A stretch of 64,000 bases of DNA. Origin: an uncultured Eubacteriales bacterium. GTDB lineage: Bacteria; Bacillota; Clostridia; Oscillospirales; CAG-272. Where the stretch lies: positions 17,813-81,812 of the forward strand of contig CATKFO010000059.1 of NCBI GenBank assembly GCA_949747515.1, written 5' to 3'. The translations under genes were made by a program, and so were the position numbers. Positions within the stretch are counted from its first letter, which is position 1, and each line of letters starts with the position of its first letter. Of this stretch, positions 21,602-32,367 are shown in pieces. Under the pieces are notes generated by a model. The model ran no database searches and was not told the origin of the DNA. It saw only the letters and a program-made list of their open reading frames with translations.

Positions 21602-21716
21602 CGAATTTCCATATTTTCATAAAGAATAACAAATCTGCATAAGCCCCCATGGTACAAGGAAATATTGATTTTTGCAGTTTATATATCTTGATGTTATTTA
21701 ACAAGAATCAATGTGA

Positions 21717-21737
21717 AAATGGCGTAAAAATGGCGTA
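21717..21737 (+). repeat. left copy of the terminal direct repeat (2 x ATGGCGTA)
   Basis: AAATGGCGTAAAAATGGCGTA; the partner at 32292-32313 differs by one extra A. Confidence 0.8.
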
Positions 21738-21764
21738 GACGATTTTTTTCAAAATTAAATATTG

Positions 21765-21807
21765 AAACGGTCATTCGTGTCTGAGAAAGTTGCGAATGAC
21801 CGTTTTT
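21765..21807. terminator. strong hairpin terminator at the left end of the element
   Basis: Perfect 13-bp stem, AAACGGTCATTCG (21765-21777) with CGAATGACCGTTT (21793-21805), then TTTTT on the plus strand. It also lies just downstream of the minus-strand 69-aa gene. Confidence 0.8.
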
Positions 21808-21812
21808 CATAT

Positions 21813-22022
21813 TTAAACTACCGCAGCGTTATCCGAGACTTCAAAAACATTCTCACCAACTACAAACAGGAGCGATCCTGTGGGACTGTCTTCAATCGAG
21901 ATATTACATCCTTGCAGTTCTGGAATCATTTTCAGTAAATCTACAATATCAGTCGGGGACAATATACATTCCTCTGCTAATGGGTTGCTTGAAGCAACAA
22001 TTTTACGTCTTAATCTCTTCAT
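21813..22022 (-). CDS. hypothetical protein (69 aa)
   Basis: AAGGAG RBS at good spacing; no motif recognised. Confidence 0.6.
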   Translation of the reverse strand: MKRLRRKIVASSNPLAEECILSPTDIVDLLKMIPELQGCNISIEDSPTGSLLFVVGENVFEVSDNAAVV

Positions 22023-22352
22023 AGTTAAAACTCCTTTGTGTGGATAATTGATTTGTAAAATTACAAGACATTCCTTTTCATTTGTGTTGCTCAGGTTGAA
22101 CAGCGTATTTTCTGTTTCATGTTTTCATGACGGTTTCATGAGTAACGCAGAATCAGAAAATCAAACTACATTCGGAAAACTTGTTTTCTTTATCAATAAT
22201 ATTAAAGGTTTTGAAGGCAATTTTTCCTATTTAAAGAGAACACCGTATATCACACGATATACGGCGGTTAAAGTTATTCTATATAAATTATGGCTGTTAT
22301 AATTTATCCACGTGAGAACAGGCGCAGAAAATGTTTGCGTTAGGTATAAAGG

Positions 22353-22658
22353 TTAGTCAATACCTAAGAGTATATTCACAGCCTGTTGCAGTTCCGGTTT
22401 TGCGCGGTAAGACTGTAATACCTTTCTTTCCTGCTCGGTGATTTCTCCATCCATTAGGTGAACATCCAAAAGCTCACTTGGCGATACCTGCAAGGCTCTG
22501 CATATCTCAGCGAGAATATCCGCGTCGGGTCTGTTGATACCCTGCTCCCAATTTGAAACCCTGCTGTTGCTGACTCCGATCAGCTCGGCTAATTGCTTTT
22601 GACTTAGATTTCTGTCCTCACGGTATTTGCGGATTCTGTTTCCGATTTCATATTTCAT
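22353..22658 (-). CDS. XRE-family HTH repressor (cI-like, no peptidase domain)
   Basis: LSQKQLAELIGVSNSRVSNWEQG helix-turn-helix. 101 aa. Divergent from a second HTH gene. Confidence 0.85.
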   Translation of the reverse strand: MKYEIGNRIRKYREDRNLSQKQLAELIGVSNSRVSNWEQGINRPDADILAEICRALQVSPSELLDVHLMDGEITEQERKVLQSYRAKPELQQAVNILLGID

Positions 22659-22717
22659 CCTATCACCTCACCTTGCAATAATTATACAGCATATTATCTG
22701 AAAAGTAAATAGAAAAA

Positions 22718-22792
22718 TACAGTATTTCTGTAGAAAAGCGTTGACGAAACAGTATATCTGTGATATAATGTAGAAAAATACAGAAAATCTTG
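22718..22792. promoter_or_regulatory. switch region: operators plus the rightward promoter
   Basis: TACAGTATTTCTGTA (22718-22732) and ACAGTATATCTGT (22749-22761) are palindromic and near-identical. A degenerate third copy is at 22780-22792. TTGACG (22741-22746), 17 nt, TATAAT (22764-22769) has the second operator in its spacer. Confidence 0.7.
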
Positions 22793-22811
22793 ATTGTGGA
22801 GGTGAAAAATC

Positions 22812-23036
22812 ATGAGTGTGTATGAAAAAGTGCGCGCGTATCTTGATGAAAACGGGATAAAACAAGTCGTTATTGCACAGAAAGCAGGGATATCCAATGT
22901 GACTTTCAACGCGATAATGAACGGCAAGCGGACAATGTATGCAGACGATCTGCGGGCTATCTGTCTTGCACTGAATGTCAGTCCCGAATTGTTTATTGAC
23001 GTTAAATGTCCTTGCAAAAGCGGTACTAAAGGATGA
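22812..23036 (+). CDS. XRE-family HTH protein (Cro-like)
   Basis: 74 aa with HTH segment QVVIAQKAGISNVTFNAIMNG; GGAGGTGA RBS. Confidence 0.8.
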   Translation: MSVYEKVRAYLDENGIKQVVIAQKAGISNVTFNAIMNGKRTMYADDLRAICLALNVSPELFIDVKCPCKSGTKG

Positions 23037-23142
23037 TTTCAGAGACGATATCTGATTTTATATTGCTAAACTAAAAATAACAGTTATCAATAAATATCTT
23101 TTTAATACAAAATAAGAATATTTTTTATTTAGGAGGCTGAAA

Positions 23143-24018
23143 ATGTTAACTCACTCAAACAAAGATGAAAATATTGTTATGAAGGATATCCATTGTCCTT
23201 ACTGTGGAAGTGATAACGCCTTATTACTTAATAAGACAACATCAAAAAAGTTATCACTTCAATTACCAGCCTATGGCTTAAAATTTATATTTTCTCTTTT
23301 ATATTTATCCTTTGTACAAATATGGATACATGGTTATAAACTAATTGAAGCAATAAAAGTAATTGATACTGTTACATATGGCTTTTGTCCTCATTGCGGA
23401 AACAGTTATTCAATGGCTCCACCAGATATCATAAAAGAAGAAATAAAAGAACCAAGATTTTATAAAATAAAAGATGGCAAAATAGTAATGGGTTTATGCA
23501 AAGGTATTTCCGAATATACGGGCATTTCCTTATTGTGGGTTCGCATTATGACAGTATTTTATGGATTAACAGTTATTGGTGCCATTTTATACTTTTTAAT
23601 TGGTGCTTGTCTTCCTTTTAAAGAAGAAGCCGAGGACGGTGTTGCATATAAGAAATTCTACAGGATTAATAAAGGCAAAGATATAATGGGTCTGTGTAAA
23701 GGCTTTTCTGAATATACAAGTATTCCTGTTATGTGGGTTAGAATCTTTACCGTATTGTTTAGTAGTACAATTATAGGCATTCCGCTTTATTTTATTATAT
23801 CGGCGTTTGTTCCTGTAAAAGAAAATGTTGAACAAGGTATTACACGGAAAAAGTTATATAAAATCAAAGAAGGTAAAGTCATTCTCGGACTGTGTGCAGG
23901 ATTTGCTAAGTATGCAAACATGCGGTTGTGGCTCGTTCGTTTGTTAACAATTGTTCTTGTCATTCCGTTAGCTTTGTATTGGATTATAGGAGCTATTGTG
24001 CCGACTGAGGAAAAGTAA
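23143..24018 (+). CDS. membrane protein: split zinc ribbon plus three tandem PspC domains
   Basis: CPYCG and CPHCG flank a TM helix. Three repeats follow of the pattern YKIKxGKxxxGLCxGxxxYxxxxxxxVRxxxV plus a TM helix. AGGAGG RBS. Confidence 0.8.
   Translation: MLTHSNKDENIVMKDIHCPYCGSDNALLLNKTTSKKLSLQLPAYGLKFIFSLLYLSFVQIWIHGYKLIEAIKVIDTVTYGFCPHCGNSYSMAPPDIIKEEIKEPRFYKIKDGKIVMGLCKGISEYTGISLLWVRIMTVFYGLTVIGAILYFLIGACLPFKEEAEDGVAYKKFYRINKGKDIMGLCKGFSEYTSIPVMWVRIFTVLFSSTIIGIPLYFIISAFVPVKENVEQGITRKKLYKIKEGKVILGLCAGFAKYANMRLWLVRLLTIVLVIPLALYWIIGAIVPTEEK
23455..24003 (+). repeat. three diverged in-frame tandem repeats, each encoding one PspC-type module
   Basis: Residues 105-158, 170-224 and 236-287 align with each other (nt 23455-23616, 23650-23814, 23848-24003). 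Confidence 0.75.
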
Positions 24019-24019
24019 A

Positions 24020-25549
24020 ATGCAGAATAATAAGCAGTTACCTCCTGGCTGGGGTAAAAATACAGAAAAACCCAAAAGCTGGAATACACAAAACAATAAA
24101 CTTCCAAATGATTTCAGTAATAGCCCAAAAGCCTTGGACACTAAAGAAAATAGTGACGCAGTCTTAACCAAAAATCATCAAGGAGAAATATCAAATTTTG
24201 TTCCTTCATCAGGTAAAGAAACAAAAACTCCCATAATCGAAAGTGATATTAAATCAGAGCAAGTTTCCGCTTGCTCTGATAACTTAAATATTACTAAGAG
24301 TACTAGTACAAATAAAAATGATGAACTAGGTCATTCTAATAAGAGCATTGTAAAACCGTCAGACAAAGCAATAACACTTTCAGAAAAAACGATTGATAAA
24401 AAATCTTCTCGCAAGAAAAAAGTTATCCTGTTCATAGCGATAATAATTATTGTCGTGTTGGTTTTTGTATGTGTTTTAATATCATTAAAAAGAAAAAATG
24501 ATAATCAAAATAATAGTACCGATAAAACAGAAGAATCATTTTCTACTGAAAAAGTATATACTTCGATAGTTTCCGAAGAAATAACCGAAGAAGAAACAAC
24601 AGATAATTCATCTGAAATTACTACAGAAACACCCTCAACAACGGAATTACCTGAAACTACTGAGCCAAATATAAGCTTAACTGAGTACATAGGTTTTTGG
24701 CGTAATTCAAATGATGATGAATTAACCATCAATAGTGCAGATCAAAGTTCAGTTAATTTTAGTTTGTATTTTTACCGACTAACTTCAATTGAAAATGTTG
24801 TCGCTGAACTTAGTGGCAATATAGCATCTTTCTCATATATCAGTAATGGGGAACCTTGGACGGGAGACGGTATAACTAGTGGAATATTAGAATTTAACAA
24901 GTCATCAATTACTGTGACCTTAACCGAATCTGATATTACTTATATACCTAAGGGTTACACCATAGTATTTGATATTATGGATAGTCAAAGCCGTGACGAT
25001 TATCAAACCGACGAACCGACATTTGAAGAAAATACAAGTTCATCAGAAGAACCAATCATTGAAACGGATAACAAAGTATATTGTTCTGTTTGCGGTACCG
25101 ACTGTACGAATAGAAATATGACAGATGGTATATGTGATGATTGTTATACTCATATTCCTAATGTTTACTGCCCTAATTGTGAATATGGTTTTTTCACTAC
25201 CGGAGTAGGTATAAGTGGATTTGAATGTCCAAAATGTAATTATAAATTTAATTATCCTCCAGATTCTCACTCGCAGGAGTTTTTTGAAATAAGCGGATAT
25301 TACAAAGAGCATGAAACTCTATCTAACGGAGAACACATAGATAAAAATTATGATGGAGAGCTTTATTTGTATTCAGATGGTACTGCTTATATATCATCAT
25401 CAGGATTGAGTGTTAATTTAAATTGGGATGTTGAAGTAATGTGGAATGCATCAAATCCTTACGAAAAATTTTCTTTTGCAACAGACAATGAGTACCTGAC
25501 TATATATTTACAAAATGACATCAAATGGATATTTAAAAAAATCTATTGA
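24020..25549 (+). CDS. single-pass membrane protein with a low-complexity N-terminus, Thr/Glu-rich linker and two CxxC-pair zinc knuckles
   Basis: The ATG at 24020 is 1 nt after the upstream stop, with GAGG at 24007-24010. TM encoded at nt 24422-24487. CSVCG..CDDC and CPNC..CPKC encoded at nt 25082-25240. Confidence 0.75.
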   Translation: MQNNKQLPPGWGKNTEKPKSWNTQNNKLPNDFSNSPKALDTKENSDAVLTKNHQGEISNFVPSSGKETKTPIIESDIKSEQVSACSDNLNITKSTSTNKNDELGHSNKSIVKPSDKAITLSEKTIDKKSSRKKKVILFIAIIIIVVLVFVCVLISLKRKNDNQNNSTDKTEESFSTEKVYTSIVSEEITEEETTDNSSEITTETPSTTELPETTEPNISLTEYIGFWRNSNDDELTINSADQSSVNFSLYFYRLTSIENVVAELSGNIASFSYISNGEPWTGDGITSGILEFNKSSITVTLTESDITYIPKGYTIVFDIMDSQSRDDYQTDEPTFEENTSSSEEPIIETDNKVYCSVCGTDCTNRNMTDGICDDCYTHIPNVYCPNCEYGFFTTGVGISGFECPKCNYKFNYPPDSHSQEFFEISGYYKEHETLSNGEHIDKNYDGELYLYSDGTAYISSSGLSVNLNWDVEVMWNASNPYEKFSFATDNEYLTIYLQNDIKWIFKKIY

Positions 25550-25616
25550 TATCTGTCTGTTGTTTTATCCCTATAAAAACAAACATCTCTTTCCGTTTAT
25601 AGATTTACACACCACA

Positions 25617-25652
25617 AAACAGCCGTAGTCTGCTATGATTACGGCTGTTTTC
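25617..25652. terminator. bidirectional terminator
   Basis: Perfect 11-bp stem, AAACAGCCGTA (25617-25627) with TACGGCTGTTT (25640-25650), plus a T run. Confidence 0.85.
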
Positions 25653-25700
25653 TATAAAAGATATTGGCAACACCTTTTCTTTTATATTAAAGTATGGAAT

Positions 25701-25943
25701 TTATTTTGCAAGAACCTCATAAGCAGATTTGTTCTTTGCAATGAGTCTCTTTGAAATCTCTCTTACATCTTCTTCTTTTGCTGTCTGCTCCTGCTCTGCC
25801 GCGTTAAATTCCACAACAAGATAGCGCGGCACATTGTTTTTCAAAATAATGACAGAGCCGTTTTCATCAACCATTCTTGCGACGCGTGAAAAATTTTGAT
25901 TGGCTTCCGTTATGGAAATTAAGTTATCTGTATTTACAGTCAT
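25701..25943 (-). CDS. Phd/YefM-family antitoxin-like protein (no adjacent toxin)
   Basis: The N-terminus ISITEANQNFSRVARMVDENGSVIILKNNVPRYLVV is typical of the Phd/YefM fold; 80 aa. Confidence 0.75.
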   Translation of the reverse strand: MTVNTDNLISITEANQNFSRVARMVDENGSVIILKNNVPRYLVVEFNAAEQEQTAKEEDVREISKRLIAKNKSAYEVLAK

Positions 25944-26141
25944 GATAAGCCCCCCTTTTTTATCTTCAATTATATTATATGCGATATTTAGGATAAATTC
26001 AACCTATTTCAGAAAAATTAAAAAAAATATATCAGTAATGCTGGGGTATTTCCGCAAATATTAATAAATCATTAAGTGGGGTTGTTGTTGAGTCTGATTT
26101 ATCTTATAATATTATTAGATCAAATGCGGCGGGGTGATTTC

Positions 26142-26729
26142 ATGATTTACGGATATGCAAGATGTTCTACCAATGAGAAACTACAGGATATTCAAAGACA
26201 GGTCAGAGAATTAAAACAGCACGGCGCGTCCGACGAGACGATTTATCTTGAATACGAAAGCGGAGCAAAGGAAGATCGGGCAGAGCTTAATAAACTGCTT
26301 AAAGCTATTCAGCCACATGACACGATCATTGCAACGGAAGTAAGCAGAATCACACGCAGTACAAAACAGCTTTGTGAGATTACAGAGCTTGCTAAATTAA
26401 GAAAACTGAAACTGATCCTCGGAAACTTCGTTGTAGATTGCAGTAAGGAGCTTGACCCAATGACTGAGGGAATGTTAAAAATGATGGGTGTGTTCAGTGA
26501 GATTGAGAGAAACATCACAAGTCAGCGTGTGAAAAGCGGTATGCATAATGCAAAGGCAAAAGGCAAGGCAATAGGCAGACCGAATACTACTGCCGACGAT
26601 ATACCGAGCGTATTCTACAAGCATTATCCCAAATACAAAAACGGAGAGCTGAATAAGAAGGATTTATCCCGACTGTGTTCTCTCTCCTATCCTACAGTAT
26701 ACAAATATTTAAGAATGATAGAGGGCTGA
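26142..26729 (+). CDS. small serine recombinase (resolvase/invertase type)
   Basis: MIYGYARCSTNEKLQDIQRQ catalytic N-terminus with the Ser in YARCST, and a C-terminal HTH. GGGGTGA RBS before the ATG at 26142. Confidence 0.88.
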   Translation: MIYGYARCSTNEKLQDIQRQVRELKQHGASDETIYLEYESGAKEDRAELNKLLKAIQPHDTIIATEVSRITRSTKQLCEITELAKLRKLKLILGNFVVDCSKELDPMTEGMLKMMGVFSEIERNITSQRVKSGMHNAKAKGKAIGRPNTTADDIPSVFYKHYPKYKNGELNKKDLSRLCSLSYPTVYKYLRMIEG

Positions 26730-26732
26730 AAA

Positions 26733-27185
26733 ATGAATGTGAAAATCTACTCGCGAGAAGCAATGGAAGAACTGTTGAAAGATAGTGTACTTGAAAGCAC
26801 AGCGGTTATCAGTTTCTATGATCCGCCGACCAAGAGAAATCCAAATGTAACTGAGCCTGTTGACTATACAGGAAAATGTGATCGGGTGTTCCATGTGTGC
26901 ATTAACGATATTGACATTGAGATATTAGGGGACTATGGCTTGACATATGACACATACTTTCCCGAGACTGACGAATTAGCAGAGTTTATTTACAAGGCTA
27001 AGCAGGATGGGTGTGATATTATCTGTCAATGCGAGTATGGGCAAAGCAGGAGCGCGGCGTGTGCCGCGGCGATACTGGAGCATTTCTACGGAACAGGGAT
27101 ATCTGTGTTTGCAGATTACAGGTACTATCCCAATCAGATGGTTTATCATAAGGTTTTTGACGCGTTGGGGAAAGTTAATACATAA
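26733..27185 (+). CDS. CX5R cysteine-phosphatase-fold protein (predicted)
   Basis: CEYGQSRS matches the C-x5-R-(S/T) P-loop of the PTP/DSP fold. The start is 3 nt after the recombinase stop. Confidence 0.55.
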   Translation: MNVKIYSREAMEELLKDSVLESTAVISFYDPPTKRNPNVTEPVDYTGKCDRVFHVCINDIDIEILGDYGLTYDTYFPETDELAEFIYKAKQDGCDIICQCEYGQSRSAACAAAILEHFYGTGISVFADYRYYPNQMVYHKVFDALGKVNT

Positions 27186-27192
27186 CTATGGC

Positions 27193-27230
27193 AAACAGCC
27201 GCTGAATGTTAGTGTTCAGCGGCTGTTTTC
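27193..27230. terminator. bidirectional terminator
   Basis: Perfect 14-bp stem, AAACAGCCGCTGAA (27193-27206) with TTCAGCGGCTGTTT (27215-27228), plus a T run. Confidence 0.9.
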
Positions 27231-27234
27231 TTAT

Positions 27235-27843
27235 CTATAGTATATCTTTATATGTCTTTGCCAAATCTTTCAAAAGAGTATCAATAGCATTAGAAGTTGC
27301 ATCAGATTCACAATTTGAGTTTTCCAAAATTTTAATAGGTTCGTAAGCCTTAAAAAAATCTTTTAGTGTTTTATCACCGAGATAATATAGCTCGTTGTAA
27401 TTAAATGATAATGTGACATGAGGTGAGTTAATTCCATCACCTATATCAATCTTGGGGTTAAATTTATTCAAAATAGCAAGTAGTGCATATGCGATTGGTA
27501 TATTCAACCAAACATCATTGCTATTAAGTTCTGTTCTTAAATCTATTTCATCCCCACATAACCAATCAAGCGAGACACCGAAGTATTTTGCCAAGTACTT
27601 TGCAGTATAAAGACTAGGAGCCTTTTCCCCTGTACCGTACTTGCCTATCATGGATTCATTTACTCCCGTTTCACGTGATATAGTAGCATTATTCTTTTTA
27701 ACTGATTCTTGTGCAGAGATAAATCTTTTAGAAAATTTTTTTCTTATGTTGTCTTCAGCTTCTTGTCTTTTGTTTTTTACTTTAGCATTTTCAGCTTCTT
27801 GTTTTTCTTGTCTTACTTTCAATTTTTCATAATTTGACGCCAT
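27235..27843 (-). CDS. HTH (XRE-like) regulator with N-terminal charged coiled-coil and an unknown C-terminal domain
   Basis: HTH segment NATISRETGVNESMIGKYGTG. AAAGGTGA RBS before the ATG at 27843. Divergent from the primase operon. Confidence 0.75.
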   Translation of the reverse strand: MASNYEKLKVRQEKQEAENAKVKNKRQEAEDNIRKKFSKRFISAQESVKKNNATISRETGVNESMIGKYGTGEKAPSLYTAKYLAKYFGVSLDWLCGDEIDLRTELNSNDVWLNIPIAYALLAILNKFNPKIDIGDGINSPHVTLSFNYNELYYLGDKTLKDFFKAYEPIKILENSNCESDATSNAIDTLLKDLAKTYKDIL

Positions 27844-27884
27844 GAAAATCACCTTTATATATATAATTTTTCTTTAAGTATATC

Positions 27885-27931
27885 ACACTATAGCAAACAT
27901 GTCAATGCTATAGTGTAGAAAACACACTATA
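27885..27931. promoter_or_regulatory. operator repeats of the second switch
   Basis: Perfect 10-bp inverted repeat, ACACTATAGC (27885-27894) and GCTATAGTGT (27907-27916). A third half-site ACACTATA lies at 27924-27931. Confidence 0.65.
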
Positions 27932-28162
27932 AAATATATTCTATATTATGTTTGATTTCCCGCGCGCATATAGCGTACAATATAGATACTTGGTAATAAG
28001 CGGTGTTGGGAGGGCACATAAAAGATGCCGTCAGAGTATTACCGGTACTCCGACGGCGATCATCCAGTGAAAACGAGATTATAACATAACATGCGGTTTC
28101 ACCATATTTATTATAAAACATTTGGACTGTAACCGCAAGAAAAAAGAAAGGAAAATATTATA

Positions 28163-28360
28163 ATGAATGAGTTTTTGAGTAATTTTTTTAAATCCCTTGA
28201 AAATGATCCTGACGTAAAGAAAACAACGTGGGATATACGCGAGGGCAAATATCCACAGGTCACATATGATCTCGGAGACCATATTGAAGAAGTTACAATT
28301 ATGAGGTGCAGTTCAATAGATGATATTGTAAAGGCTCTCATGGATAGTGAGGAGGAATAA
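28163..28360 (+). CDS. hypothetical protein (65 aa)
   Basis: AAAGGAAA RBS. The stop is 1 nt before the primase ATG. Confidence 0.6.
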   Translation: MNEFLSNFFKSLENDPDVKKTTWDIREGKYPQVTYDLGDHIEEVTIMRCSSIDDIVKALMDSEEE

Positions 28361-28361
28361 T

Positions 28362-30734
28362 ATGATATTAGATGAAATACTGAGTTGCTTCAATGACGTT
28401 AAGAAAAAAGACGGTGGAAAGAGATATGAAGCGCGATGTCCTGCACATGACGACAAACACCCAAGCCTATCAATATATATAAATGGCGATTGGGTAAATT
28501 TACATTGTTTTACGGGGTGTTCCGAAGAGAAAATACTCAGTTCAGTGGGATTAAAAAAATCCGATTTATTTATAGGAGCAAAGGGGGTAAGACCAATGGT
28601 AATTAAAGAAAAAATCTATAAATATCAAAAGGCTGACGGCACTCTTGCCTACACAAAAAAACGTTTGGATTATGATGACGGTAAGAAATCATTTTTCTTT
28701 AGTATGCCCGACGGAACAAAAGGATTAAAGGATACAAAACATCTCTTTTATAATCTCCCGGGGATAGACAAAGCTAAAATAATTTATTTTGCAGAAGGTG
28801 AGAAATGCGCCGACGCGATCATTGAGCAAGGCTATACAGCAACTACTCTTGACAGCGGAGCAAATTCAAAATTTTATAAAGAATATATAAAATACTTCAA
28901 AGATAAGGAAGTCATAATCATTCCTGACAATGACGAGCCGGGAATGAAGTATGCCAAAATGATTCAAAAAAATCTACCGTGGGCAGTAATTAAAGAGTTG
29001 CCGGGTCTCAAAGAAAAAGAAGATGTGTATGACTGGTTACAATCGGGACATTCAATAACCGAGATTGAAAAAATTCCTGCGACGGTTTTAGAAAATACTG
29101 ATAATGAAACTTCTGATATCTCCTTTGAAAACAGACAACAGTCTGGCATTTTACTTGATATTATCAGAAATGAAGAAACAGACTTCTTTATGGATGAAAG
29201 TAATAATGCGTTTATAGAAATACTAAATGAAGACCATAAGGAAATTTATGATATAAGTGGCAGTGACTTTAACTTGTGGGCTCAGAATGTATTCTACAAG
29301 AAGAGCAAAAAGGCAATCTGCAAAGACAGTCTTGCGAGAGCAATAGACATTCTGATTGCAGATACAAAATTTGGCAACAAGCAAAAATATATATTGTCAA
29401 ATCGTGTTGCAAAAAGCGGAAATGATTTTTGGTTTGACCTCTCAAATGATAAGTGGTCGGCAATCAGAACAAATTCCGATGGATGGGCATTGATTAAGGA
29501 CGTTCCGAAGCTGTTTTGCAGATATAATCATCAGGCGGCGCAGACGCTTCCGCAGAGCGGCGGGAATATTATGGAAATATTTAAATATGTAAACATGAGC
29601 GGATATCAAACCTTATTCCTTTGTTGGCTTGTCTCATGCTATGTGCCTGATATACCACACCCTATGCCGATTTTTTACGGCGAGAAGGGCGCGGCGAAAA
29701 GCACAGCTTGTGAGCTGTTGAAAAAGCTAATTGATCCGTCATTGATGGATACAGTATCATTAAGTAAAGATGAAAGGACGCTTGTAGTCAATTTACAACA
29801 TCATTATTTTCTACCGTTTGACAATGTATCTGCCATCAATAATGATACCAGCGACATATTGTGCCGAGCGATTACAGGCGGGGCAGTTCAGCAGAGAAAA
29901 TTACATACTAATGGTGAAGATTATATTTTCAAATTTAAAAGGTGTTTAGCTATAAATGGCATTAACAATGTTGCGAATCGTTCAGACCTTCTTGACCGTT
30001 CCATACTGTTTGAGTTGGAGCGTGTGCCCGAAGAAAAGCGTAAGGAAGTACAGGAAATTAAAAATACGTTTGAAGCTGACAGACCTTATCTATTGGGAGC
30101 CATATTTGATATTCTGTCAAAGGCAATGGCAATACATCCAACTGTAAAATTGGACATGCTTCCGCGAATGGCTGATTTCTGTCGTTGGGGGTATGCTATT
30201 GCAGAAGCAATAGGAAATCATGGCGATAGATTTTTACAAGAGTATAAATCTAATCAGGAAATACAGAATACCGAAGCAGTTAACGCGGATATGGTAGCCT
30301 TTCTGATAGTTGAATTTATGAGACACCAAAGAGATTGGTCGGGACGAGTATCTAAGCTTTACAGTGAATTGAAAAATGAAGCTGAAAGGCAAGGCATAAA
30401 TCCCAACAGCAAAAATATACCACAATCTCCTAATAATCTATCAAGACGAATAAAAGCTGTCAAGAGCAATCTTGAAAAGGTGGGTATCACATTTGAATTT
30501 GACACTACAAGATCAGACGGCACATACATCATACTTAAAAATACAATTTTATCTCCATTAGCTTCATGCCATGTGAATCCATACCAAGTTCTGGAGGATT
30601 CAAGCGAAATAGGCAATGGTGACGGCAATGGAGATAGTTCATTCACATCGGAAGCATCACCACTCCAAACTACCTTTAACAGCAATGACAATGGCGATAA
30701 TGAAGATGATGAAGATGAAAATGTAATATTTTAA
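28362..30734 (+). CDS. bifunctional DNA primase / P-loop helicase-like replication protein
   Basis: Zinc motif CPAHDDKHPS..HCFTGC, Toprim-like FAEGEKCADA and IIIPDNDEPG, Walker A GEKGAAKST, and an acidic tail. GAGGAGG RBS before the ATG at 28362. Confidence 0.85.
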   Translation: MILDEILSCFNDVKKKDGGKRYEARCPAHDDKHPSLSIYINGDWVNLHCFTGCSEEKILSSVGLKKSDLFIGAKGVRPMVIKEKIYKYQKADGTLAYTKKRLDYDDGKKSFFFSMPDGTKGLKDTKHLFYNLPGIDKAKIIYFAEGEKCADAIIEQGYTATTLDSGANSKFYKEYIKYFKDKEVIIIPDNDEPGMKYAKMIQKNLPWAVIKELPGLKEKEDVYDWLQSGHSITEIEKIPATVLENTDNETSDISFENRQQSGILLDIIRNEETDFFMDESNNAFIEILNEDHKEIYDISGSDFNLWAQNVFYKKSKKAICKDSLARAIDILIADTKFGNKQKYILSNRVAKSGNDFWFDLSNDKWSAIRTNSDGWALIKDVPKLFCRYNHQAAQTLPQSGGNIMEIFKYVNMSGYQTLFLCWLVSCYVPDIPHPMPIFYGEKGAAKSTACELLKKLIDPSLMDTVSLSKDERTLVVNLQHHYFLPFDNVSAINNDTSDILCRAITGGAVQQRKLHTNGEDYIFKFKRCLAINGINNVANRSDLLDRSILFELERVPEEKRKEVQEIKNTFEADRPYLLGAIFDILSKAMAIHPTVKLDMLPRMADFCRWGYAIAEAIGNHGDRFLQEYKSNQEIQNTEAVNADMVAFLIVEFMRHQRDWSGRVSKLYSELKNEAERQGINPNSKNIPQSPNNLSRRIKAVKSNLEKVGITFEFDTTRSDGTYIILKNTILSPLASCHVNPYQVLEDSSEIGNGDGNGDSSFTSEASPLQTTFNSNDNGDNEDDEDENVIF

Positions 30735-30748
30735 TACGGAGGCTATAT

Positions 30749-30952
30749 ATGAACAAAGAAATAAGTATTCCAATTAATCAAAAGGCTTTACTTTCAATTA
30801 GAGAGGCGTCGGAGTATACCAACATAGGTATTAATAAAATTGACCGTATGCTCAGGACTCCTAATTGTCCGTTTGTACTTTATGTAGGTACAAAGAAGCT
30901 TGTTAAACGTAAGGAATTTGAAAAGTTTCTTGATAATCAGTTGGTTATCTGA
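30749..30952 (+). CDS. xis: excisionase-family DNA-binding protein
   Basis: 67 aa; LLSIREASEYTNIGINKIDRML HTH typical of small excisionases. GGAGG RBS. Lies directly upstream of int. Confidence 0.8.
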   Translation: MNKEISIPINQKALLSIREASEYTNIGINKIDRMLRTPNCPFVLYVGTKKLVKRKEFEKFLDNQLVI

Positions 30953-31003
30953 CGTTTAAAAGATTTTTAGTAATTATAGTAAGAAAATTTATTAAAACCA
31001 TTG

Positions 31004-31051
31004 AGAGAAAAGAGCTTTTATGATATAATAACATGTCAGGCTCTTTTCTCT
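31004..31051 (+). promoter_or_regulatory. 12-bp perfect inverted repeat bracketing an extended -10 element upstream of int
   Basis: AGAGAAAAGAGC (31004-31015) and GCTCTTTTCTCT (31040-31051). TGATATAAT at 31021-31029 lies between the arms. Confidence 0.5.
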
Positions 31052-31073
31052 TCTACTCAGAAAGGAGCTTTAC

Positions 31074-32270
31074 ATGGGCAAGGATTTAAAAGGCAGAGAA
31101 ATTGGAAAGGGACTTTCACAGCGCAAGGACAAGAAGTATTCTGCAAGATATGTAACGAAAAGCGGAAGACGGCTTGAAAAATATTTTAGCACACTTCCCG
31201 AAGCCCGAAATTGGCTTGCAGATTCTCAATATGAAGATTTATACGGTACAACGGGACTTACTTCTACAGTCAGCGTAGACACGTGGTTTAATTACTGGTA
31301 TAATAACTTAATAGTTGATTTATCTCCTAATACAAGACGGAATTATAAGGAGCGATACGAAAGAAATATTCAGCCTGCTATAGGCAGAATGTGTATATCA
31401 GACGTTAAGCCAATGCACTGCAAAATGATACTTAACAACATGTCGAAGGACTATGCAGGCTCTACAATCCGTCAGACATATATAGCTATGGGAACAATGT
31501 TCCGATCTGCCGTTATGAATGATGTAATCCGAAAACATCCTATGGACGGTGTGAAATCCACAAAACCCGTAAGAGCGCCCAGCGACCATAGAGTATTGAC
31601 CGTAGAAGAACAGAAAAAGTTTCTTAAAGTTGCAAAATCATCACATAATTATTATCAGTATGCTTTGGCATTGGAAACAGGACTGAGAACAGGTGAAATA
31701 ATTGGTCTTACTTGGGATGCGGTTGATTTAAAAAATAAAGCTCTTACTGTTAATAAAACTCTTGAGTTCAGACACAATCAGCATACATGGCGGGCTGGTC
31801 CTCCTAAGACGCGGACAAGCTACAGAACAATTCCTCTTACAAACAGAGCTTATAACTTATTTCTGGAGCTTAAAGAAATGCGTAAGTCTCAGAAATTATC
31901 TGAGAATTTATCACAAATGCTGACATACACCGACAGGCGTACAGGGCAAAAGTCAAGTCTTATAATGCGCGATTTGGTATTTATAAATTTCAGAACTGGA
32001 ATGCCTGCAAAAAACAGTTCTTATGACACCCATATTTATAAGCTGTGCGAGACGGCGGGAATACCTCCGTTTTCAATGCACACATTAAGACATACATATG
32101 CAACGAGGGCGATTGAAAGCGGCGTACAGCCAAAAGTTCTTCAAAAACTTTTAGGTCATGCAAGCATTCAAACTACAATGGATACATATGTTCATGTAAC
32201 GGATGATTCCATGAATAACGCTATCAGACAGTTTGAATTAAACAACGCGGCAAACAATGATTTACCCTGA
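31074..32270 (+). CDS. int: tyrosine-type site-specific integrase
   Basis: Catalytic C-terminus HTLRHTYAT ... LGHASIQTTMDTYVHV. The N-terminal basic segment resembles arm-binding domains. AAAGGAG RBS. Confidence 0.93.
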   Translation: MGKDLKGREIGKGLSQRKDKKYSARYVTKSGRRLEKYFSTLPEARNWLADSQYEDLYGTTGLTSTVSVDTWFNYWYNNLIVDLSPNTRRNYKERYERNIQPAIGRMCISDVKPMHCKMILNNMSKDYAGSTIRQTYIAMGTMFRSAVMNDVIRKHPMDGVKSTKPVRAPSDHRVLTVEEQKKFLKVAKSSHNYYQYALALETGLRTGEIIGLTWDAVDLKNKALTVNKTLEFRHNQHTWRAGPPKTRTSYRTIPLTNRAYNLFLELKEMRKSQKLSENLSQMLTYTDRRTGQKSSLIMRDLVFINFRTGMPAKNSSYDTHIYKLCETAGIPPFSMHTLRHTYATRAIESGVQPKVLQKLLGHASIQTTMDTYVHVTDDSMNNAIRQFELNNAANNDLP

Positions 32271-32291
32271 TTTATGCCTGTTTTGTAATCC

Positions 32292-32313
32292 AAATGGCGT
32301 AAAAAATGGCGTA
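32292..32313 (+). repeat. right copy of the terminal direct repeat
   Basis: AAATGGCGTAAAAAATGGCGTA; matches 21717-21737 except for one extra A. Confidence 0.8.
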
Positions 32314-32367
32314 AAATAAATTTGAAACCATTAAAAACCCCTTAAAATAAAGGAGATTTGAAAATAA

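Follow-up and report, generated by a model that had tools for sequence, protein, structure and literature searches.

Proteins in which a PspC domain follows an N-terminal zinc ribbon, PSP variants devoid of PspA and the view of PspC as a membrane sensor were described by Ravi et al. 2024 (PMC11237479), and PspA-free contexts of PspC are known from the literature (PMC11237479, PMC9239133). In this study we analysed a pair of adjacent genes located in a 64,000-nucleotide stretch of DNA from an uncultured Eubacteriales bacterium (contig CATKFO010000059.1, positions 17,813 to 81,812; the window). Gene 1 encodes a zinc ribbon followed by a PspC array, and gene 2 a surface protein with an N-terminal LPxGWG tail. 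The pair resembles the zinc ribbon-PspC (ZnR-PspC) proteins in that PspC follows a zinc ribbon, no PspA is encoded in the operon and a membrane-proximal sensing role has been proposed (PMC11237479). However, the ribbon of the pair is split by a hydrophobic helix and represents a distinct, narrowly distributed family, its PspC domains are arranged in tandem (3x) and are dispensable in relatives, and neither an LPxGWG-tailed partner nor a location on mobile elements has been described for the ZnR-PspC proteins (PMC11237479). The split ribbon, the tandem PspC array and the partner are therefore new, whereas zinc-ribbon-PspC fusions are already known (PMC11237479), so that an earlier note on this DNA, which had put the pair forward as a candidate undescribed system, overstated its novelty in the latter respect. 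In the literature searched, neither anti-phage defence nor YidD was linked to the PspC domain, and the pair itself was undescribed there.

A second group of related proteins is formed by S. aureus TcaA, Llmg_0524/0526 of L. lactis, zinc membrane proteins that affect wall integrity (PMC4628341), and B. subtilis YdjG, which together with YdjH anchors the PspA complex and is encoded in pspA-ydjGHI (PMC8581546). These proteins combine a cytoplasmic C4 zinc module with one or two transmembrane (TM) helices and a long extracellular part, and the likeness extends to operons of two zinc membrane proteins and to links with cell-wall integrity and the Psp network. In our pair, in contrast, the zinc ribbon and the TM-ectodomain reside on separate polypeptides, and the likeness drawn here is one of architecture. 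Gene 2 has no N-terminal cysteines and is not of the fused zinc ribbon-TM-ectodomain type (TcaA / Llmg_0526 / YdjG), so the pair would reproduce this architecture only in trans. Moreover, TcaA, Llmg_0526 and YdjG are encoded by chromosomal housekeeping or stress genes, whereas the pair belongs to mobile islands.

Envelope proteins that block phage entry offer a functional comparison: C. difficile CwpV (PMC4737114), S. thermophilus Ltp (PMC3952083) and P22 SieA (PMC10883804) are, like the products of the pair, non-enzymatic. CwpV also shares a variable outer domain and switch-like control of expression, and Ltp and SieA the location on mobile elements. However, there is no homology, those proteins act singly, and Ltp and SieA are prophage genes, whereas the pair is absent from phage genomes. 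Zorya ZorAB and Kiwa KwaAB are membrane-anchored defence sensors, and the likeness to them is the idea of the earlier note, namely a membrane complex that senses envelope perturbation in a defence-island context. Homology to these systems is lacking too, the sole Zorya-type match being a neighbouring Snf2 gene, and unlike them the pair has no cytoplasmic effector such as a nuclease.

Our preferred reading, with a probability of about 0.4, takes the two genes to encode a two-part envelope module that travels on mobile elements; its zinc ribbon would dock the LPxGWG tail, and it would probably serve exclusion or envelope protection.

A conserved, translationally coupled gene pair

Homologues of gene 1 formed 78 clusters at 90% identity and those of gene 2 formed 6. 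A scan of one genome per species yielded 40 loci, and the whole set comprised about 45 distinct locus groups, all 45 of which were matched by the hidden Markov model (HMM) of the gene 1 signature domain. The 40 scan loci were labelled Ruminococcus, Oscillospiraceae, Acutalibacteraceae and related Clostridia, with one exception, a contig of a metagenome-assembled genome (MAG) labelled Alistipes. Among the carriers are the isolates R. flavefaciens FD-1 and SAb67, Ruminococcus sp. YRD2003, Eubacterium album LFL-14 and Lachnoclostridium sp. MSJ-17.

An LPxGWG-tailed partner (consensus NNK-L-P-x-G-W-G-K) was encoded in 40 of the 42 related operons. The partners measured 340-750 aa (except for 274 aa in locus L027) and had one TM helix situated 65-280 residues from the N-terminus. 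The median intergenic gap to the partner was 2 nt, and the gap did not exceed 20 nt in 38 of 40 operons; in the window the ATG of gene 2 lies one base beyond the stop codon of gene 1. The same loci contain 262 unrelated open reading frames (ORFs) that reach 300 aa or more, none of which carries the LPxGWG motif; the sole extra matches came from the second partner-type gene of the L050-L052 operon. Such pairing goes far beyond chance and marks the two genes as truly paired, conserved and translationally coupled. These counts agree with the coupled translation that the earlier note considered likely, and contradict the finding it had named as fatal to its idea, an absence of co-occurrence outside this element.

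The L050-L052 operon (e.g. L050:2282-6082) contains one zinc ribbon-PspC gene, downstream of which come the genes of two LPxGW-tailed proteins of 340 and 391 aa, separated by a 333-aa gene, which implies that one adaptor gene may serve several partners. The zinc-ribbon domain and the LPxGWG motif were the only elements kept across the whole family, and the number of LPxGW repeats did not correlate with the number of PspC modules. Truncated or frameshifted copies of gene 1 occurred in L059 (262 aa) and L019 (split). When the gene 2 family was searched by profile in the indexed database, only the query set was returned.

Gene 1 starts with the ATG at 23143, seven bases downstream of AGGAGG (23130-23135), and stops with the TAA at 24016-24018; its domains are listed in Table 1. 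The CxxC knuckles CPYC (residues 18-21) and CPHC (82-85) flank a hydrophobic helix (about 42-65). According to the alignment and the HMMs, the signature domain has the order HCPYC, beta strand, PAYGLK plus hydrophobic helix, beta strand, FCPxCGN, and AlphaFold2 (AF2) assigned, with low confidence, strands to residues 26-40 and 69-81 and a helix to residues 45-63. An amphipathic in-plane helix inside the zinc ribbon was considered and rejected, since the helix between the knuckles combines high hydrophobicity with a low hydrophobic moment (0.12-0.29). The membership of gene 1 in the PspC family is established by Pfam PF04024, which matched in three stretches (E = 9e-36, 121.9 bits, cut-off 25), while the NCBIfam model TIGR02978 (107.2 bits, cut-off 104) was passed only by the three modules summed. 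In PspC domains (PMC11237479) a conserved arginine lies between the first, cryptic helix and the TM helix; in the gene 1 alignment W132 and R134 were invariant and R200 nearly invariant, and each of the three modules carries a WVR/LVR motif. The Pfam scan of gene 1 gave no match to the YidD model PF01809, and among the PHROGs there was nothing beyond one family of unknown function (E = 2.8e-4).

Gene 2 runs from the ATG at 24020, preceded by GAGG at 24007-24010, to the TGA at 25547-25549. The ORF listing also gives TTG 23996 as a possible upstream start, but all homologues begin at a conserved M..NK-LPxGWG, so the ATG is taken as the real start. Together these data confirmed the gene limits, the single-nucleotide spacing, the GAGG, the three PspC modules and the knuckles as originally reported, and the promoter and terminator described below were confirmed as well. 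The N-terminal LPxGWG repeats are the sole part of gene 2 that is conserved family-wide; the 135-aa N-terminal region to which they belong is rich in K, S and N and was predicted by AF2 to be disordered. The topology is probably N-in/C-out. Beta module 1 proved in an exhaustive profile search to be a widespread ectodomain common to hundreds of other surface proteins. Its origin, with beta module 2, by internal duplication was rejected because hhalign detected no homology between the two. Both CxxC pairs that the earlier note had pointed out as zinc knuckles are present; they lie in the ectodomain, however, and pair 1 is specific to this copy, its place being taken by an SH3b domain in the homologues. 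The partners in L008, L010, L016 and L019 end at their C-terminus with the motif of pair 2.

No Pfam family matched gene 2 above threshold. Its AF2 model gave no Foldseek match at E ≤ 1e-3 in PDB or BFVD, so this check, which had been proposed in advance, identified no known family; the best structural likeness, to avidin-like 8-stranded barrels (TM-score 0.55-0.58, aligned module unspecified), was not significant. Profile searches of PDB sequences with the proteins of the pair were empty.

Variable membrane modules and ectodomains

The signature domain was followed by 3, 2, 1 or 0 PspC modules. In the operons with 0 modules their place was taken by a separate YidD-domain protein of about 140-176 aa with two TM helices, encoded between the zinc-ribbon gene and the partner; this intervening gene was found in 12/12 such operons with enough downstream sequence. 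The proteins matched Pfam PF01809 (E about 1e-17) and scored above the cut-off of NCBIfam TIGR00278, the models of YidD, a membrane-protein insertion efficiency factor (PMC8082313). However, they carry two TM helices in addition to the YidD domain, a domain that gene 1 itself lacks. The resulting three-gene form (L033-L047; e.g. L037:9980-12639, L043:9998-12622), consisting of a zinc-ribbon protein, a 2TM-YidD protein and an LPxGWG-tailed SH3b surface protein, was often located directly beside a tyrosine integrase. It looks as if one zinc-ribbon domain can be combined with either of two membrane modules, a PspC array or YidD. The triple PspC array, on which the earlier note had centred its description, is thus not a defining trait of the family.

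YidD is encountered in one further context. An Oscillospiraceae MAG (L026:9367-15031) and L060 contain a 166-aa ZnR-PspC gene without a partner, placed between rnpA and yidD and hence directly upstream of yidD-yidC in the housekeeping operon rpmH-rnpA-yidD-yidC-jag-mnmE. The rnpA-[ZnR-PspC]-yidD arrangement represents a single lineage, as the metagenome scan gave only the same organism at 99% identity.

SH3_3 occurred in the ectodomains of many partners and YARHG and FG-GAP in those of one each, the others having no known domain; SH3_3, YARHG and FG-GAP are wall-binding or sensor types. The gene 1 homologue of L058 was 83% identical to that of the window, and its partner showed no similarity to gene 2 by BLAST, whereas the gene 1 homologues of L001 and L005 were only 36-42% identical and their partners 40% identical over 370-400 residues. 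Divergence of gene 1 and of the partner is thus uncoupled, and the ectodomain behaves as an exchangeable cassette. Given such exchange, it must be the conserved N-terminal motif that links the two proteins functionally.

The exhaustive profile search with the gene 2 alignment retrieved 2873 proteins, mostly via the SH3b domain and beta module 1. Among the best 146 new proteins sharing the ectodomain, 20 begin with LPxGWG and 29 with a fused (double) zinc ribbon before the TM helix. Fusions of this kind suggest that the pair represents the zinc ribbon-TM-ectodomain architecture in trans. At L061:5246-7563 a 246-aa Zn_Ribbon_1 protein was observed together with a 520-aa fused zinc ribbon-TM-ectodomain protein whose C-terminal part is gene 2-like; both are encoded in the same slot of a similar island, flanked by a cI-like helix-turn-helix (HTH) gene and a 195-aa resolvase.

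Operon control, host island and genomic surroundings

Upstream of the pair lie a Cro-like gene and a divergent cI-like gene (Table 1), the protein product of the latter being 68-79% identical in related islands with the same regulator type. When both strands were scanned for the ACAGTATWTCTGT palindrome, 4 matches were obtained, 3 of them at the two sites near the predicted promoter, against an expectation of 0.6, and 0/100 shuffles reached the observed value. In the interval between cro and gene 1 the scan listed no promoter with more than 9/12 positions and no terminator. The predicted hairpin at the operon end is flanked by A/T runs on both sides, so bidirectional termination is possible. 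Control by invertible DNA through the adjacent resolvase was considered and dropped, as neither the promoter nor gene 2 had convincing inverted repeats around it. In L001 (6421-7254) a 277-aa protein of several double zinc ribbons is encoded between cro and the PspC gene, and in L048 a 241-aa protein of unknown family.

The pair resides on a low-GC island, with a GC content of 0.33-0.37 between about 21 and 32 kb as compared to 0.40-0.46 in most of the flanking sequence. Tandem AAATGGCGTAAAA motifs are present at 21716-21741 and 32291-32316 (copies at 32291/32303); these are probable att or integrase-binding sites, with the integration site just upstream of ychF. Besides the pair and its regulators, the island contains genes for a Phd-like protein, a small serine resolvase, a DSPc-like protein, a second HTH protein, a primase and a tyrosine integrase, and the flanks with GerA and SpoIVB point to a spore-forming Clostridia host. 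The island is integrative, satellite-like, horizontally acquired DNA. With an integrase, a primase, two divergent HTH switches, a size of 10.6 kb, inside the 7-20 kb range of such elements, and no structural genes, it resembles in layout a phage satellite of the phage-inducible chromosomal island (PICI) kind, and no match to terS, ppi or cpm-like packaging/capsid-redirection genes was found among the island ORFs scanned. The mobile-element location proposed in the earlier note is thus borne out by the low GC content, the integrase, the primase and the att-like repeats.

The 5.4-kb block carrying the pair (Table 1) was 95.7% identical at the DNA level to the metagenome contig L059, and the flanks differ there (in L059 a reverse transcriptase, RT, on the left and RtcB on the right). 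This implies that cI/cro, the pair and the resolvase recombine as one separate block and that the island is composite. The pair was also said to occupy the cargo position of the element; it does sit on a mobile island, but as part of this conserved block with cI/Cro and the resolvase rather than as variable cargo.

Several observations concern the neighbouring genes of the island. Relatives of orf69 were found as weak BLAST matches (23-38% identity) in L010, L018 and L019, and a 69-aa gene occupies the same position in L005 and L059. The Phd-like gene has no adjoining toxin ORF and converges on the terminator of the pair; in L028 a Phd-like gene in the same position is followed by an overlapping 104-aa ORF (a possible toxin). 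The resolvase is 74-81% identical in L008, L010, L018 and L019, where it is also just downstream of the pair, and is followed by DSPc-like relatives in L008 and L059 and by a 156-aa gene of unknown family in L005. A second divergent regulatory region (27235-30734) comprises a 205-aa HTH gene (-) opposite orf65 and the primase (+), with near-consensus promoters at 27905-27877 (-) and 27952-27981 (+).

Table 1. Features of the gene pair and of the island that carries it (window positions)
Feature	Position	Strand	Basis or remark
Low-GC integrative island, about 10.6 kb	21716..32316	.	AAATGGCGTAAAA repeats at ends; upstream of ychF (32368)
Conserved 5.4-kb block	21754..27185	.	orf69, cI-like, cro-like, gene 1, gene 2, phd-like, resolvase, DSPc-like
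69-aa ORF (orf69), downstream of cI-like gene	21813-22022	-	no family match
cI-like Xre-family HTH regulator, 101 aa	22353..22658	-	Pfam HTH_3 E = 1.6e-19; divergent from operon
Two perfect operator-like palindromes, ACAGTATWTCTGT	22719-22731, 22749-22761	.	second inside promoter spacer
Predicted sigma-70-type promoter of cro, gene 1 and gene 2	22741..22769	+	TTGACG-17-TATAAT, extended TG, 11/12
Cro-like HTH, 74 aa, first gene of operon	22812..23036	+	Pfam HTH_26 E = 9e-8; PHROG 4583
Gene 1, 291 aa	23143..24018	+	zinc ribbon, then three PspC modules
Gene 1 signature domain, residues 10-100	23170..23442	+	invariant columns of homologue alignment; domain HMM E = 3e-51
PspC module 1, residues 104-162	23452..23628	+	Pfam and HMM built here
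PspC module 2, residues 170-228	23650..23826	+	Pfam and HMM built here
PspC module 3, residues 236-291	23848..24015	+	Pfam and HMM built here
Gene 2, 509 aa	24020..25549	+	single-pass surface protein with LPxGWG tail
Decapeptide repeats LPPGWG / KPKSW / LPNDF, residues 5-40	24032..24139	+	P8, W11, P18, W21 invariant in alignment
Gene 2 TM helix, residues 136-158	24425..24493	+	hydropathy; AF2 helix 132-162
Thr/Glu/Ser-rich stalk, residues 159-216	24494..24667	+	composition; AF2 confidence (pLDDT) < 50
Beta module 1, residues about 217-320	24668..24979	+	AF2 pLDDT 67-84, all-beta strands
Zinc knuckle pair 1, CSVC...CDDC, residues 355-375	25082..25144	+	specific to this copy
Zinc knuckle pair 2, CPNC-x15-CPKC, residues 384-406	25169..25237	+	invariant columns, conserved in subfamily
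Beta module 2, residues about 418-509	25271..25546	+	AF2 pLDDT 73-86
Predicted intrinsic-terminator-like hairpin, operon end	25616..25651	.	-22.9 kcal/mol, z = -5.7
Phd/YefM-like antitoxin gene	25701-25943	-	Pfam E = 1.3e-5 (below gathering score); PHROG 2194 E = 2.8e-24
Small serine resolvase, then 150-aa DSPc-like gene (dual-specificity phosphatase fold)	26076-27185	+
Primase, 795 aa	28347-30734	+
Tyrosine integrase	31074-32270

Recombinase genes were detected within 10 kb of the pair in 25 of the 45 distinct loci, and in 17 of the 28 loci with at least 15 kb of sequence, typically at a distance of 0.1-4 kb. The neighbours of the relatives included tyrosine or serine recombinases, primase/VapE, relaxase/NikA and ImmA-like regulators, and, among genes of the defence type, dGTPase (E = 3e-54), HEC-06/GmrSD-type genes, HKD+Snf2 (E = 3e-127) together with genes for a KAP NTPase (PDC-S20) and a methylase, and type I and DpnII restriction-modification genes. 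The earlier note had asked whether homologues are enriched in mobile elements or near defence genes; relatives do lie in other integrative or mobilisable islands adjoining known defence genes. An RT beside the relatives in L005 and L059 was discarded as defence cargo, as it was matched best by generic and group-II-intron-type RT models.

In 50,697 GenBank phage records tblastn found no relative of gene 1 or gene 2, and gene 1 had no relative in the PLSDB plasmids (tblastn) or in IMG/VR. PADLOC-DB v2.0 gave no defence-system match for either protein, only weak partial ones (to PDC-M14A across 11 residues at E = 0.0036, and to a CorA-like model across the TM region at E = 5e-4). By PHROGs, phage records and IMG/VR, the pair does not match the prophage superinfection-exclusion proteins of the Sie2009, Ltp or SieA type. 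No PspA/LiaH, PspB, PspF or LiaFSR/Toastrack was present among the annotated neighbours in the window and about 10 related loci, and within this scope the pair does not belong to a canonical Psp/Lia envelope-stress system.

What the pair may do

In the exclusion or envelope-protection module that we favour, the zinc ribbon of gene 1 would sit on the cytoplasmic side, dipping into the membrane, and would dock the LPxGWG tail of the partner at the inner face. Such docking could rebuild in trans the common Firmicute design of N-terminal zinc ribbon, TM helix and variable ectodomain, and tie it to the PspC hairpins (in relatives the YidD-domain protein) as a membrane-active or insertion-assisting part. 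No enzymatic or DNA-binding domain was detected in either protein, in keeping with the absence of enzymatic motifs reported earlier; as the complex lacks an enzyme or DNA-binding output, its action would have to be a physical one, exerted in the envelope. Turned on from the cro promoter under operator control, the module may guard the envelope of the carrier cell by shutting out incoming phage or DNA at the wall or the membrane, or by protecting the membrane.

Several points weigh against this proposal. The docking of LPxGWG by the zinc ribbon is inferred from co-conservation alone, and the AF2 model of whole gene 1 was too poor (pLDDT 57) for a structure search. Given its strong hydrophobicity and low moment, the helix between the knuckles could place them on opposite sides of the membrane, where they would form no single ribbon. 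By PADLOC, PHROG and phage tblastn the pair has no homology to any proven exclusion or defence protein, and in 20 of the 45 loci no recombinase was found in the sequence at hand. If the cI-like protein holds the cro promoter off at rest, the pair would not be expressed constitutively, unlike classical exclusion genes. Finally, the partner-less ZnR-PspC gene in its rpmH-rnpA-yidD-yidC-jag context is easier to reconcile with biogenesis than with defence. A defence function is plausible, but direct evidence favours it no more than it does a role in biogenesis.

A dedicated biogenesis pair is the main rival, if in itself somewhat unlikely. Gene 1 would then resemble YidD as an insertion or holdase factor, seizing its client by the LPxGWG N-terminus and helping YidC/Sec to insert it, and the surface protein would serve the host or the element in wall contact or adhesion, not in immunity. 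Gene 2 and its counterparts would be difficult clients because their signal-anchor is located 70-280 residues from the N-terminus and is followed by a large ectodomain. The YidD and YidC links, that is the 2TM-YidD protein between the zinc-ribbon gene and the partner in every informative 0-PspC operon and the position between rnpA and yidD-yidC in L026 and L060, support this explanation directly, and the tight translational coupling would suit a co-translational chaperone. However, no insertase role is known for PspC, the rnpA-yidD context comes from one lineage, and the mobile islands, the defence neighbours and the shuffled ectodomains are left unexplained. It is improbable that the pair acts by abortive infection, with an ectodomain that senses phage attack on the wall, a zinc ribbon that relays the signal and PspC hairpins or YidD as a swappable, membrane-collapsing effector. 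A constant adaptor combined with a swappable membrane module and a hypervariable sensor resembles the modularity of defence systems, and the defence-island neighbours and the tight Xre-type control are compatible with this, but there is no sign of toxicity and no PADLOC match, the truncated and split gene 1 copies of L059 and L019 are two non-discriminating observations, and the housekeeping copy in L026 speaks against an inherently lethal module.

The pair might also be an envelope sensor for the island's own switch, reporting the wall or membrane state to cI/Cro, e.g. by sequestering a regulator at the membrane as PspBC does with PspA, and thereby governing when the island is induced. The pair does travel with cI/cro as one block, both regulators lack sensor or peptidase domains, and PspC is regarded as a signalling sensor (PMC11237479, PMC9239133). 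This explanation is quite improbable, since more than half of the loci have no such cI/cro pair, the genes there directly following an integrase or sitting in restriction-modification islands, and no domain known to bind HTH proteins is present. A holin/lysis cassette or an ordinary adhesin, with the two genes functionally unlinked, is largely refuted and hardly deserves credence. Both products are membrane proteins and the SH3b domains of the relatives are common in endolysins, but no partner has a catalytic lysin domain, there is no meaningful PHROG match, the pair is absent from the phage records and gene 1 from IMG/VR, and the conserved coupling and motif speak against chance adjacency. 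The window points the same way, with no hydrolase domain, no PHROG for gene 2 and no phage structural genes in the island, and the standard lysis cassette that the earlier note had named as a refuting identification was not recovered, there being no match to a lysis cassette, a PADLOC system or a PHROG family.

A bolder form of the exclusion module, which we regard as unlikely, would make the pair the first representative of an immunity or exclusion system of a new, envelope-based kind, specific to gut Oscillospirales mobile elements, in which the zinc-ribbon adaptor would couple a hypervariable wall-binding sensor, via LPxGWG, to interchangeable hairpin modules (a PspC array or a YidD-domain protein); alternatively, and in the same doubtful range, it may be a new accessory of the YidC/YidD pathway recruited to display the elements' own surface proteins.

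Outside proteobacteria little is understood of the molecular roles of PspC and YidD, two small membrane domains of wide distribution. Their interchangeability behind one zinc-ribbon adaptor, together with a partner that carries a short, testable docking motif, offers a handle on the roles of these domains. If the pair excludes phage or foreign DNA, it would represent a new envelope-level type of defence from abundant, little-studied gut and rumen relatives of Ruminococcus; if it is an insertion aid, PspC would be linked to the YidC/YidD pathway. Either reading would account for a recurrent, unannotated gene pair of Oscillospirales mobile islands.

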